Shown here: in pieces, positions 1,642 through 8,330 of the stretch
Position numbering within the stretch: position 1 is the first letter of the stretch
Layout: each line of letters starts with the position of its first letter
Source of the DNA: Candidatus Fermentibacteraceae bacterium
GTDB lineage: Bacteria; Fermentibacterota; Fermentibacteria; Fermentibacterales; JCC-6
Length of the DNA stretch: 27,534 nucleotides
Direction: 5' to 3'
NCBI GenBank assembly: GCA_041686025.1
Contig: JAWLEP010000036.1
Coordinates: 1-27,534, forward strand
Notes under the pieces: generated by a model
Database searches by the model: none
Told to the model about the DNA's origin: nothing
Seen by the model: only the letters and a program-made list of their open reading frames with translations
Position numbers and translations under genes: made by a program

Positions 1642-3675
1642 ATGGACCAGGACCGCGGGGAAGGCGGCTCACTCTTCCGGGCCGACTGTCTCAGCAGATT
1701 CATGCGGGATAACGGGCTGGGCAGATTCTCCCCCGAGGACCTCCTTTCGCGGATACTCACCACAAACCCCGGCATAGTCTACGTTTACAGCGTGGAGAAC
1801 AACCACACGCTGTTCGCCAGCATGGGCATACTGGCCGTTCTGGGATACCCTCCCGAGGAGGTGTCCGGGGACACCGGCTTCTTCCTGAAAGCCGCCCATC
1901 CGGAGGACACGGCCGACATCGCCGATTGGCATCGGCGCGTCCAGAGCCTGGAGAACGGAGGCGTGCTGGAGCACCGCTTCAGGATGCGACACGACCGGGG
2001 CCACTACGTCTACCTGAAATGCAGGGAGACGGTCTTCGCCCGGTACGGGTCCGGAAAGCCGGCCCTGGTGATCGGCAGCGCCACCGACGAGACCGAGGCC
2101 GTGGTGGCGGAGAGGGAGCTGCTGGAGAAGACCGAGGAGCTCCGCCGAAGCGAGGAGCGCTACCGTCTCCTGGTGGAATCCTCCGTGGACGCCATCGTGG
2201 GCGTGGACGCCGACATGCGGGTAATCCTCTGGAATCATGCGGCGGAGAGGATGTTCGGCTACCCGGCGGAGGAGATGCTGGGCGAGAGCCTGCTCCGAAT
2301 AGTCCCCGAGGATCTGCGGGAAAGCAAGACGGAGGGATTCTCCCTCTTCAGCAGGACGGGCGAGGGGGAGGTGCTGGGGGGAGTGCGCGAGCTGGAGGGC
2401 CTGCACAGGAACGGATCTCTCGTTCCCCTGGAGATATCCATCGCTCCGCTGCAGGTGGACCGAAGATGGACCGCCACCGGCATACTGAGAGACATCTCCG
2501 AGCGCAGGAGGGCGCAGAGGCGCCAGCGGAAGATGGTCATGGAGATGCAGCGCATACAGCGCCTGGATGCGGTGGGAGCGCTGGCGGGCGGAATCGCCCA
2601 CGACTTCAACAACATACTGAGCTCCATCCTGGGAAACATATCCATGGCCCGGGAGCTGGCCGAAGACGGGGACCGGCTCAGAGCGCTCATGAACCAGAGC
2701 CATGAGGCCGTGCTTCAGGCCAGGGAGCTGGCGGGTCAGCTGCTCACCTTCGCCGAGGGAGGCGAGCCCGTGCGGGAGGTGATCGACGTGGGCCCCATGG
2801 TGGAGAAGGGCTGCCGTTTCAGCCTGGCGGGCTCCGGGTCGCGGTGCCGGATGGAGCTCGAGCCCCACCTGTACGTCCTCGCAGACGGCGGTCAGATATC
2901 CCAGATGGCGGGCAACCTGGCCCTGAACGCATCACAGGCAATGGAGGGCGCGGGCGACGTGGTGGTACGCGCCTACGCCACCAGCATCGGCGAGAACGAG
3001 CTTCCGGGTCTCCCCCGGGGCGCCTACGTGGCTGTGGAGGTGGAGGACACCGGGCCCGGCATTCCCGAGGACTGCGCCGAGAAGATATTCAACCCCTTCT
3101 TCACCACCAGGCGCGAGGGGCACGGTCTGGGGCTGTCCGTCTGCTACTCCATCGCCCGTCAGCACGAGGGCACCGTACTGGTGGAGTCCGAGCCCGGAGA
3201 GGGCGCTCTGTTCCGGGTACTGCTTCCCCTGTCGGAGAAGCCCGCCGCGCAGGACGGACCCTCCATGGAAACCCGGGCACCGACGGGAGCCAGGGTGCTG
3301 GTGATGGACGACGACGAGGCGGTCAGAAAGGTCCTCAGGCAGATGCTGGAGAGTCTGGGGATGGAAGTCGTCGAGGCCTCCGAGGGCGGGTCGGCAATCG
3401 ACCTCTACAGTCGGGCCGCCGACCACGGCAACGGCTTCGACCTCCTGATAATGGATCTCACGGTGCCCGGTGGAATGGGGGGTGCGAAGGCCATGCGGAA
3501 GCTGGTGGAGCTGGACCCCGCCGTTACCGCGCTGGTCTCCAGCGGCTACTCAAACGACCCCGTAATGGCCAGGTACGCCGAGCACGGCTTCGCCGGAGTG
3601 CTGAAGAAGCCATTCACGCTCAGGGAGCTTAGAAGGGCGCTGCTGAGCACCCTGGGCAGCCGGGGCCAGGGCTAG
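1642..3675 (+). CDS. Cytoplasmic PAS-PAS hybrid sensor histidine kinase/response regulator
   Basis: Two PAS/PAC domains (HPED, WNHAAERMFGY), H-box AHDFNN, N-box NLALNA, DTGPGI, FNPFFTT, GHGLGL, and a receiver domain (MDDD…MDLT…KKPF). RBS AGGAGG. Confidence 0.93.
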   Translation: MDQDRGEGGSLFRADCLSRFMRDNGLGRFSPEDLLSRILTTNPGIVYVYSVENNHTLFASMGILAVLGYPPEEVSGDTGFFLKAAHPEDTADIADWHRRVQSLENGGVLEHRFRMRHDRGHYVYLKCRETVFARYGSGKPALVIGSATDETEAVVAERELLEKTEELRRSEERYRLLVESSVDAIVGVDADMRVILWNHAAERMFGYPAEEMLGESLLRIVPEDLRESKTEGFSLFSRTGEGEVLGGVRELEGLHRNGSLVPLEISIAPLQVDRRWTATGILRDISERRRAQRRQRKMVMEMQRIQRLDAVGALAGGIAHDFNNILSSILGNISMARELAEDGDRLRALMNQSHEAVLQARELAGQLLTFAEGGEPVREVIDVGPMVEKGCRFSLAGSGSRCRMELEPHLYVLADGGQISQMAGNLALNASQAMEGAGDVVVRAYATSIGENELPGLPRGAYVAVEVEDTGPGIPEDCAEKIFNPFFTTRREGHGLGLSVCYSIARQHEGTVLVESEPGEGALFRVLLPLSEKPAAQDGPSMETRAPTGARVLVMDDDEAVRKVLRQMLESLGMEVVEASEGGSAIDLYSRAADHGNGFDLLIMDLTVPGGMGGAKAMRKLVELDPAVTALVSSGYSNDPVMARYAEHGFAGVLKKPFTLRELRRALLSTLGSRGQG

Positions 3676-4889
3676 GGCTCCACCCGCAGAAGCGGCTCGT
3701 GCCCCTGGCGCTTCTCCACATGGCCTACTATGGCCGAGGCTGTGTCACCCTCCTCGTGAAGCCGCTTCAGGACCTCTTCGGCCTGGGCGGGATTCACAGA
3801 GAAGAGAAGGCCTCCGGAGGTCTGGGACTCGCTGAAAACGGTAACCAGCCTGGAGTCTATGCCTTCGCGGACCTCCAGGTGGTCGGCGACGAACTGCCTG
3901 CACTTGCAGACGCCCTGGGGATTGTACTCGTCCATCAGACCGGGAAGACCCGGAAGCAGCGGCACGCTGGAGGCCGAGAACACCATCCTGCTGCCCGAGT
4001 AGCGGGCCATGGGCAGGGCGTGGCCCAGCAGGCCGAATCCGGTTACGTCCGTCATCCCTCCGGTGTCGTAGTCCTCCAGGATTCGAGCCGCGTACATGTT
4101 CAGCCTCTCCATGCCCTCCACCCAGACCCGGTAGAGGTCGGGAGAGAGGCCCTCCTGCCGGTACGCGTTGCAGTATATGCCGGTCCCCAGCGGCTTGGTC
4201 AGCACCAGCAGCTGGCCCGGTCTCACAGATGCGTTGCGGGTTGCCCTCTCGGGGTGGATCAGGCCGGTGACGCTCATGCCGTAGACCATCTCGGTCTGCT
4301 CCAGGGTGTGCCCCCCCATCAGCGCCACTCCCGCCTCGGTCAGCTTCTCCGAGCCCCCGGACAGCAGCGCCTCGATAGCCTCGGCAGGAATCTGGCCCGC
4401 CGGGTAGGCCAGGTGGTTCATGGCGGTGATGGCCCGCGCTCCCATGGCCCATATGTCCGAGAGGCTGTTGGCGGCCACTATCCGCCCGAAGCTGCCGGGG
4501 TCGTTCACTATGGGATAGAAGAAGTCCACGGTCTGCACCAGGGCCTGCTCCGGCGAGAGACGGTACACGCCGGCATCGTCCATGGTCTCCATGCCCACCA
4601 GGAGATCAGGGGTCTCGAACCTCGGCAGCTTTGACACTATCCCGGCCAGCCTGGTCGGGTTGAGCTTGCCGGCTCAACCGGCACAGGGGGCGTAGTCCAG
4701 CATCCGTATCTCCCTGCCGGTGGGTATGGCCCTCTCCGGCTGCTGGCCGTGCTCGCCCTGACCGTAGAGGAACTCGCAGTATGTGGGCTCCCCCCGGCCG
4801 TGGTGGAAGCGGCAGCATTCGGCGCAGTTGCCGCGGCGCTGGCAGTCGGACGGGCAGGGACAGTGCTTTCCGTCGTAAGGCGCTCCCAT
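3672..4889 (-). CDS. selD: Selenide, water dikinase (selenophosphate synthetase); selenoprotein (Sec72 at TGA 4674-4676) with an N-terminal Cys-rich extension, 405 aa
   Basis: ORFs 4674..4952 and 3672..4637 share one frame and are separated only by TGA. Read-through gives IRMLDYAPCAG-U-AGKLNPTRL…LLVGMETMDDAGVY, aligning to E. coli SelD IRLTQYSHGAG-C-GCKISP…LLVGNETRDDAAVY. Core motifs QTVDFF, NSLSDIWAMG, GGHT, LTKPLGTG, TDVTGFGLLGH, QTSGGLL. RBS AGAGGGGAG before ATG 4889. Confidence 0.93.
4624..4670 (-). promoter_or_regulatory. Putative bacterial SECIS element of selD
   Basis: mRNA after the UGA: upper hairpin CCCG-A-CCA-[GGC]-UGG-C-CGGG (4641-4659), apical loop starting with G, 22 nt from the UGA. 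A possible lower stem is GGCAAGCU/AGCUGCC. Confidence 0.65.
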
Positions 4890-5007
4890 GGCTCCCCTCT
4901 GTTGCTGCTCGACACCGGACGATAACCCGCCGGCCCGTCCGCTGCAATGCACACCCGCCGGCCGTAAATAGATAATACGCTGTCCTGCAGCGGTTTATGC
5001 GGGAAAC

Positions 5008-5036
5008 TTGGCCCCCCTTGATGTTCTCCTTATGAT
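5008..5036 (+). promoter_or_regulatory. Putative sigma70 promoter of the yitT-lipoprotein-tatD-tcdA run
   Basis: TTGGCC-N17-TATGAT in an AT-richer intergenic region. Confidence 0.5.
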
Positions 5037-5091
5037 AGCGCCATTCCCGACAATGATTGGTCGATCCTTCCTTCCTCTGGAGGAGAGCGCC

Positions 5092-6039
5092 ATGGGCAGG
5101 TACACGCTCAGGGAGAACCTGGCAGACTACGCCGGCATGCTGGCTGGGTCCGTCCTCTTCGGAGTCGCCTACTCCTGGTTCCTCTTTCCCTTCCGGGTGT
5201 CCCCGGGAGGGGTGGGAGGCCTGGCGCAGGTTCTCTACCATCTCACCGCCGTGCCGGAGGCCTACTGGATGTTCGGCTTCAACATACCCCTGTTCATCCT
5301 GGGATACGTCTTCGTGGGACGGCAGTTCGGTATCAGGAGCTTCGTGGGCATGGTCCTGTCGAACCTCATGTGCTGGGTGTTCACGCCATCGCACCTGGCT
5401 TTCCTGGCCTCCTACGGCGAGATAGTGCACAACGTGGCGCCCGCCGGCGCCCTGCCGCGGCTGGCCGTGTTCTTCGACGGCTCGCGGGAGACCCACATAC
5501 TGCTGGCCTCCGTAACCGGCTCCGCCCTGCTGGGCCTTGGCCTGGGCCTGATATTCAAGTTCCGGGGCTCCACCGGGGGCACGGACATCCCGGTGGCCAT
5601 ACTGAAGAAGTACACGGGCGTTTCCATCAGCACCGGCTACTGGATCGTGGAGTCCTTCATAATACTGCTGGTGGGCGTGGTCTTCGCCCGTCCGGCAATC
5701 GTGGTCTGGGCCTACCTCAACCTCTTCCTCACCAGCAGGATGACCGACCTGGCCGCGGAGGGCCTGCCCTACGTGAAGGCCGTGGTGATCGTCTCCGACA
5801 GGGCGGGGGAGGTGCGGGAGGCCATCTTCGAGGAGCTCAACCGCGGCCTCACCTTCCTGAAGGGCCACGGGGGCTACGACCACCGGCCCAGGGACGTGAT
5901 CTACGTGTGCGTCCACCGCAGGCAGGTGAACCTCCTGCGAAAGATCGTGCGGGACATCGACCCGGAGGCGTTCATGGTGATGCATGACGCCTACGACGTG
6001 ATGGGCTATGGTTTCAGGGAAAGGACCATCACCTACTAG
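5092..6039 (+). CDS. YitT family integral membrane protein (DUF161 + C-terminal DUF2179)
   Basis: Motifs PGGVGGLA, FNIPLF, GSTGGTDI, RGLTFLKGHGGY, IDPEAFM. Multiple hydrophobic helices. RBS GGAGGA before ATG 5092. Confidence 0.9.
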   Translation: MGRYTLRENLADYAGMLAGSVLFGVAYSWFLFPFRVSPGGVGGLAQVLYHLTAVPEAYWMFGFNIPLFILGYVFVGRQFGIRSFVGMVLSNLMCWVFTPSHLAFLASYGEIVHNVAPAGALPRLAVFFDGSRETHILLASVTGSALLGLGLGLIFKFRGSTGGTDIPVAILKKYTGVSISTGYWIVESFIILLVGVVFARPAIVVWAYLNLFLTSRMTDLAAEGLPYVKAVVIVSDRAGEVREAIFEELNRGLTFLKGHGGYDHRPRDVIYVCVHRRQVNLLRKIVRDIDPEAFMVMHDAYDVMGYGFRERTITY

Positions 6040-8233: not shown

Positions 8234-8330
8234 TGGCGGGAACGTGTGGGAATCGAACCCACCCAGGATGGTTTCAGCACCCAACGCCGGATTTGAAGTC
8301 CGGGAGGGACACCAGCCCCCTTCCGCTCCC
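8234..8330 (-). tRNA. selC: tRNA-Sec (anticodon UCA), 97 nt, CCA encoded
   Basis: GGGAGCGG-AA-GGGGGC TGGT GTCCCT-C-CCGGA CTTCAAA TCCGG-long variable arm-GTGGG TTCGATT CCCAC-ACGTTCCC-GCCA. The 6-bp D stem with 4-nt loop, UCA anticodon, long extra arm, 8-position acceptor arm and G discriminator are all tRNA-Sec hallmarks. Confidence 0.96.

Follow-up and report, generated by a model that had tools for sequence, protein, structure and literature searches.

In this study, we describe a selD gene from the window (the whole stretch of 27,534 nucleotides of contig JAWLEP010000036.1 from a Candidatus Fermentibacteraceae bacterium) in which a small N-terminal domain with six conserved cysteines and one conserved histidine is joined in frame to a SelD core, ahead of a UGA codon that encodes selenocysteine (Sec72). 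Our comparison of genomes points to a fused architecture that is phylum-wide and apparently undescribed. The Sec-type fusion is nearly fixed in the phylum, whereas published SelD fusions are almost all Cys-type, and it opens a widespread, unstudied Cys-rich family to assays. It also exposes an annotation blind spot, caused by the splitting of the fused gene at the UGA.

The fused gene, its selenocysteine and its N-terminal domain

The complete gene (3672-4889, minus strand, TAG included) encodes 405 amino acids: it begins with the ATG at 4889, is read through the TGA at 4676-4674 and ends at the TAG at 3674-3672. Ahead of the ATG lies a purine-rich ribosome binding site (RBS), AGAGGGGAG (4900-4892, minus strand; anti-SD duplex of -7.5 kcal/mol), which confirms the claim of the first-pass annotation that the N-terminal start has an RBS of its own. 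A PAS histidine kinase gene (1642-3675, plus strand) converges on selD with a 4-base overlap at the selD stop, and a gene for a YitT/DUF2179 membrane protein (5008-6039, plus strand) diverges from it, so that the fused selD is probably transcribed alone; within 3500-5200, no match to a sigma-70-type promoter was found on the selD strand. Contigs from RNA libraries are identical to the window at 4683-4869, 4684-4896 and 4600-4750, and a contig from a relative extends over 3754-4758; as contigs only, which may derive from DNA, they were not counted as proof of expression.

The SelD core (residues 60-405; 3675-4712, minus strand) is over the cut-off for both PF00586 (AIRS) and PF02769 (AIRS_C), and its TIGR00476 score (310.1 bits for a cut-off of 125) places it in SelD, with PRK00943 at 280.6, under its cut-off of 299. 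The best Foldseek matches of the predicted model are SelD structures (TM-score 0.92 to 2yye_A, by target length), the nearest being those of Aquifex aeolicus and E. coli. The invariant residues are C69-x-x-U72, K75, D104, D105, D122, N141, D145, H194 and D281, with U72 and K75 aligning to C17 and K20 of E. coli SelD; we take the catalytic Sec/Cys and Lys and the conserved Asp/Asn to have the roles that they have in SelD. We infer that the core would make selenophosphate from ATP and selenide, the usual product. The gene thus shares with Sec-type SelD (TIGR00476; 2yye/2zod, 3u0o) the fold, the catalytic Sec/Cys and Lys, the Asp set and the UGA with its SECIS, and differs in about 58 extra N-terminal residues with the Cys6-His domain and in an invariant CxxU. 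Similarity to SelD begins at residues 59-61, ahead of Met63, and the domain is kept in frame among relatives of the 405-residue frame through the UGA; the first-pass annotation had argued on the first of these grounds for a true fusion, and both bear it out. A clade-specific C328-K-C330 lies in the C-terminal SelD domain (3900-3908, minus strand), at a place where E. coli and Aquifex SelD have no cysteines; C330 occurs in 12 of 30 aligned relatives, and the CKC motif in 69 of the 120 best database homologs. Clades without this motif have a G-x-x-N-type stretch there, and another cysteine, C240, is present in 19/30.

The UGA (4674-4676, minus strand), which stands opposite Cys17 of E. coli SelD, encodes Sec. 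It is TGA in 30/30 aligned relatives and is followed by a bacterial SECIS-type hairpin (4641-4659, minus strand; +18 to +36 from the U of the UGA), for which 92% of 232 alignment cells are paired and 30 cells carry a two-sided change, a level reached in 0 of 500 shuffles, compared with 19-50% paired in slid controls; in the pair formed by columns 21 and 33, the changes fall at third codon positions. Since folding of the single sequence gave no significant signal (z between -0.93 and 0.04 in four windows), the case for the hairpin rests on covariation. The genome carries selA and selB, both over their cut-offs, and a tRNA-Sec gene (8234-8330, minus strand), 3.3 kb upstream of selD with opposite-strand genes between. 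Together, these observations support the recoding that had been proposed from the sequence of the window.

The N-terminal domain (residues 1-44; 4758-4889, minus strand; ligands at 4776-4862) follows the pattern CxC-x3-C-x5-CxxC-x3-H-x8-C. Its ligands C10, C12, C16, C22, C25, H29 and C38 are invariant in 30/30 full-length relatives and, together with P11, in 26/26 aligned domains, far more than chance would give; among 145 homologs, C10, C12, C22, H29 and C38 are found in all 145, C16 in 144, C25 in 143 and H19 in 118. The domain, which begins MGAPYDGKH, had been described as a 7-Cys/His unit: six cysteines and one histidine are indeed conserved, but the seventh cysteine (C26) is found in this genome alone (1/30), and the spacing holds except that the last spacer, counted from the conserved H29, is x8 and not x7. 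Outside the ligands, only P11 and G20 are conserved on the surface across the fused clade, the remaining surface residues being variable but basic. In five groups of kin, the domain has a pN/pS (as uncorrected proportions) of 0.05-0.26, compared with 0.12-0.31 in the first 250 codons of the core; by these codon comparisons, purifying selection acts on the domain as strongly as on the core. The predicted model has a pLDDT of about 90 over residues 11-40 and one main helix with otherwise little secondary structure, which would suit a fold organised by metal. For residues 1-48, Pfam and NCBIfam gave no match, a profile search of PDB sequences with the domain gave no solved relative, and a fold search of the model against PDB and BFVD found nothing, a 40-residue metal-organised fold being hard for such tools. 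When two SelD cores (73-405), Zn and the domain (1-44) were modelled as one complex, the score was 0.21 for a mark of 0.32, which counts neither way. Between domain and core lies a variable linker (residues 45-59; 4713-4757, minus strand), recognised by low pLDDT and by the alignment of relatives: residues 46-59 have a pLDDT below 50 and are predicted to be disordered, both length and sequence vary, and the distance from the last Cys to Sec is 25-37 residues.

A second product could in principle arise from the internal AGGGAG (4715-4710) and the ATG of Met63 (4703; together 4701-4715, minus strand), a possible second start found in this genus only. The AGGGAG is present as the first-pass annotation had reported, and in this genome its anti-SD duplex is as strong as that of the upstream start (-7.7 compared with -7.5 kcal/mol), the two being about equal in the sister species too. 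However, the position of Met63 is Met in 4/30 and Leu in 26/30 full-length relatives, which argues against a conserved short isoform. Between the domain and the CxxU motif, 5/39 fused loci have no ATG, GTG or TTG and 17/39 no ATG, and a duplex of -5 kcal/mol or stronger precedes the upstream start in 27/39 and the internal start in 12/39; moreover, the AGGGAG is itself coding sequence of a conserved G-R-E stretch. A short SelD form, not conserved, may thus be local to this genome and its sister species, and translation from Met63 only is not what these loci suggest. The same reading holds that under low selenium the UGA acts as a stop and releases a 71-residue Cys-rich peptide with a sensing or metal-binding role. 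Such a product would contain the complete domain, like the free homologs of 40-60 residues, and a gene with an RF-1 domain lies upstream in 6/25 fused loci, all close kin. To our knowledge, however, every Sec gene yields some termination at its UGA as a by-product, and the 71-residue database entries are output of gene callers and not evidence of a protein. We therefore consider it improbable that the gene was shaped to give several products.

Distribution, origin and kinship of the fused domain

All 31 loci first retrieved, from 30 genomes, carry the domain in frame ahead of the UGA. In Fermentibacterota (the phylum as named by close homologs), 65 of 70 genomes have a SelD match and 62 of 70 the fused form, counted by hand as a match beginning within the domain and continuing past the UGA (60 whole, 2 partial). 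The three non-fused genomes comprise G005 (95% complete), which has an unfused close relative as the only SelD found, G002, which has another SelD type only, and G042, which has a C-terminal fragment only. Across three families the fusion is kept in frame at 47-85% identity. The search for the same fusion in other genomes, proposed in the first-pass annotation, was therefore positive, and relatives that encode the Cys-rich frame separately, with no link to selD, were not the pattern encountered. Outside the phylum, 1 of 40 loci is fused (G263), with an N-terminal part identical to a protein named Ca. Sumerlaeota, and the phylum of G263 has the fusion in 2/75 genomes; homologs that end at the SelD start carry Planctomycetota and Sumerlaeota names, and such matches ending in the SelD start number 19 among the best 150 of 414 representatives. 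Metagenome loci are fused through the TGA in 4/58. In a midpoint-rooted FastTree of 60 SelD cores, with few outgroups, all fused copies lie together on the same side of a split (support 1.0), and two copies of the G263 group and two unfused copies are nested inside. This topology fits one origin, an inter-phylum transfer and at least two losses.

No gene neighbourhood is conserved across the phylum among the 56 of 82 listed neighbour frames that were scanned. The RF-1-domain gene mentioned above (about 140-160 amino acids; L005, L007, L008, L009, L010 and L012) lies directly upstream on the same strand; we take it to be ArfB-like by its size. Genomes of genus g9 (e.g. G009, G012, G015, G018, G021) each have two fused selD paralogs from different subclades, and a fused and an unfused selD stand in tandem in G025:C329.

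The first-pass annotation had noted a resemblance to DUF6485-type proteins, and kinship with this family is supported here. The fused domain has the DUF6485 (PF20095) ligand spacing CxC-C-CxxC-H-C, but is tethered to an enzyme; the additional Cys of the CCEC motif and a TYDRS-type tail at the C-terminus, both found in the consensus of 39 free homologs, are missing from it. Neither the query nor any of 26 fused domains (0/26) matches PF20095 at E values up to 10. A profile of the fused domains aligns to the 39 free homologs with an hhalign probability of 97.4 (E 1.2e-11), a kinship that is partly circular because the free homologs had been found with a related profile. Independent support comes from two free paralogs of the phylum that pass the PF20095 cut-off, that of this genome scoring 52.2 for a Pfam cut-off of 24; as a lead, the nearest Atlas clusters (scores 0.90-0.91) have PF20095 in 31-58% of their members. 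From the paralogs and the clusters, we regard the domain as a relative of DUF6485 and not as a member by threshold.

Free homologs of the domain, of 40-60 amino acids, are many, and a profile of the 145 homologs has matches in 119 of 348 genomes outside Fermentibacterota. A linkage of the free genes to selD was considered and rejected: selD is present in 51/119 outside genomes with a domain match and in 112/229 without (43% vs 49%; Fisher p 0.31, kinship ignored), and no SelD core lies beside the free domain genes in 39/39 genome loci or in 54/58 metagenome loci. The selenium connection is thus a property of the fusion, and elsewhere the domain has a role independent of selenium. Among the 90 scanned frames of the 140 listed around free DUF6485 loci, the neighbours are varied. 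A separate free DUF6485 gene stands besides the fusion in many genomes; in this one, it lies at G000:C17:27479-27679 (plus strand), about 9.5 kb upstream of selA-selB on one contig, an arrangement not seen in the other genomes examined.

The absence of the domain from the best 120 database homologs of the core (0 with the domain or the catalytic motif) is explained by gene callers that cut the gene at the UGA; of 66 short database matches, 58 end at the residue before Sec. We found no publication that describes the SelD-Cys6-His fusion (subscription reviews of SelD lay beyond the search), and none on DUF6485, on selenocysteine in Fermentibacter or on selenophosphate in Hyd24-12; the accessible part of a 2026 review (PMC13188914) does not mention the SelD fusion. 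In the accessible text of the 2015 survey by Mariotti (PMC4561486), the catalogued extensions are NADH-dehydrogenase-like, NifS, methyltransferase and a Plasmodium one, prokaryotic fusions are Cys-type save one, and other extensions seen in single species are said to have been left unreported. The earlier claim that this domain is absent from the known SelD fusions is borne out as far as the available text of that survey and of Zhang and Gladyshev (PMC2398784) extends, and no catalogued instance of the fusion came to light.

Possible roles of the domain in selenium handling

Known SelD fusions offer a point of comparison. Ndh-SelD and NifS-SelD likewise have an extra domain on the N-terminal side and an active-site CxxC/CxxU, as far as the accessible text describes them (PMC2398784, PMC4561486), but their partners are large enzymes and the fusions are Cys-type with one reported exception, whereas the present fusion has a 40-residue module, is Sec-type in all copies read and is usually the sole SelD type of the genome. 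It has no N-terminal oxidoreductase or PLP domain in Pfam or NCBIfam, and TIGR04369 (109.9 for a cut-off of 700) matches the core only. The accessible text of Zhang and Gladyshev gives CxxC/CxxU in all SelD fusions and in about 5% of single-domain SelDs (PMC2398784). One outside genome (L202, G036:C74) has a Cys-type SelD with a fused NifS-like domain, recognised by inspection; fusions of this type are known. A different Cys-rich module occupies the same place ahead of the catalytic loop in 13 loci of a separate Cys-type SelD clade; it has an unrelated Cys spacing, Cys in place of Sec and an extra CMD domain. These SelDs (L127-L139, in the phylum of G263, and L201, in G028) have a six-Cys N-terminal module, and L128 adds a C-terminal AhpD/CMD with selA directly upstream.

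Based on these comparisons, our tentative preference is for a Zn-organised module that is tethered beside the Sec loop and helps to hold, reduce or hand over selenium. The fold of the domain would be organised by metal, with one or two Zn ions the likeliest, and the flexible linker would hold the domain some 30 residues before the mobile CxxU loop in each subunit of the SelD dimer. The metal-thiolate cluster may then hold or reduce incoming selenium, or re-reduce a C69-U72 selenylsulfide, and so feed the Sec loop; the core would make selenophosphate as usual, with the domain improving the reaction and not strictly required for it. This reading agrees with the presence of the fusion in 62 of the 65 genomes with a SelD match, with ligands that are near-invariant in 145 homologs, with the low pN/pS and the one-helix fold of the domain and with C69 (invariant, 30/30). 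Known N-terminal SelD partners are described as redox or selenium-delivery domains (PMC4561486, accessible text), the unrelated Cys-rich module is placed likewise, the N-terminal loop with the catalytic Sec/Cys is reported to stay flexible in the dimer until substrate binds (bioRxiv 10.1101/2020.01.28.922716, accessible text) and the in vivo selenium donor to SelD is called unsettled in the consulted portions of PMC13188914 and PMC8538045. Other observations sit less well with selenium handling: free DUF6485-like genes occur regardless of selD, two unfused SelDs nest in the fused clade (one of them the only SelD of G005), CxxU is found in unfused SelDs too (L076, L123, L124-L126), the UGA stands at the catalytic position of each fused copy read there, with no Cys-type fusion of the domain found, and the 7-8 ligands could all bind structural metal and leave no reactive thiol.

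In an explanation without thiol chemistry, which we hold to be less probable, a structural Zn module would offer SelA, a Sec lyase/NifS-like donor or tRNA-Sec a surface to dock on, or would act as a lid that orders the flexible N-terminal loop. All ligands are conserved on a variable but basic surface, free homologs with no selenium link fit a generic scaffold, and the N-terminal region of SelD/SEPHS2 is, in the accessible part of one preprint, required to bind SelA and Sec lyase (bioRxiv 10.1101/2020.01.28.922716). Yet beyond P11 and G20 the fused clade has no conserved non-ligand surface, and selA is adjacent in 1 of the 25 fused loci with listed neighbours (L072). An Fe-S cluster that relays electrons, or that switches SelD by sensing oxygen or iron, appears rather unlikely. 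Six Cys and a His could hold one, radical SAM genes flank 5/39 free DUF6485 loci, and P-loop ATPases of Mrp/NUBPL type or with a ferredoxin lie directly upstream in 2/2 metagenome fused loci (L145, L150); however, the spacing is not of ferredoxin type, no Fe-S family in Pfam, NCBIfam or PDB matches, and most homologs have His at two of the eight positions (H19 in 118/145, H29 in 145/145), as is more typical of Zn sites. Finally, the chance fusion of a neighbouring small gene, carried with no benefit to SelD, strikes us as very improbable: free genes for the domain are common (119/348 outside genomes) and the domain was lost at least twice, but it has been kept in frame in three families at 47-85% identity and through a transfer between phyla, it is under strong purifying selection, and many genomes also keep a free DUF6485 gene.

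To return to the selenium-handling module, one specific form of it, of which we are doubtful, is a tethered shuttle in which the metal-thiolate cluster captures a perselenide or selenotrisulfide and passes it to Sec72, perhaps via C328-K-C330. If this were true, a whole phylum would have solved selenium delivery inside SelD, and the DUF6485 superfamily would gain its first biochemical role. As regards the delivery of toxic selenide to SelD, a 40-residue tether beside the catalytic loop could be tested by a single deletion.

Further selenoprotein candidates

A genome-wide scan with a SECIS pattern gave mostly noise. Two genes (L203 at G000:C35:27177 and L204 at G000:C39:16594, both plus strand) encode FG-GAP-repeat proteins with a signal-peptide-like start and an in-frame UGA followed by Cys, and the hairpin after the UGA has the same loop as the selD SECIS. 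Their homologs occur in 38/41 genomes of the phylum, with up to 9 matches each and nearly all with one TGA. As no NCBIfam selenoprotein model matches them, no relevant literature was found and the accessible part of the 2026 review does not mention them, they look like an undescribed, expanded family of secreted selenoproteins. A further gene (L205, G000:C7:61263, plus strand), which has no Pfam or NCBIfam match, is a candidate selenoprotein, with a signal-peptide-like start, a C-G-D-U motif (CxxU) and, past the UGA, a strong hairpin. In a search of weak power for longer proteins with the Cys6-His domain, 2 of 1403 candidates had it, and neither is a full SelD fusion. Seven proteins (P0072, P0074, P0088, P0089, P0121, P0136 and P0137) have the domain, then a predicted amphipathic stretch and a CPx/CSS end, and could represent a second UGA-truncated architecture.
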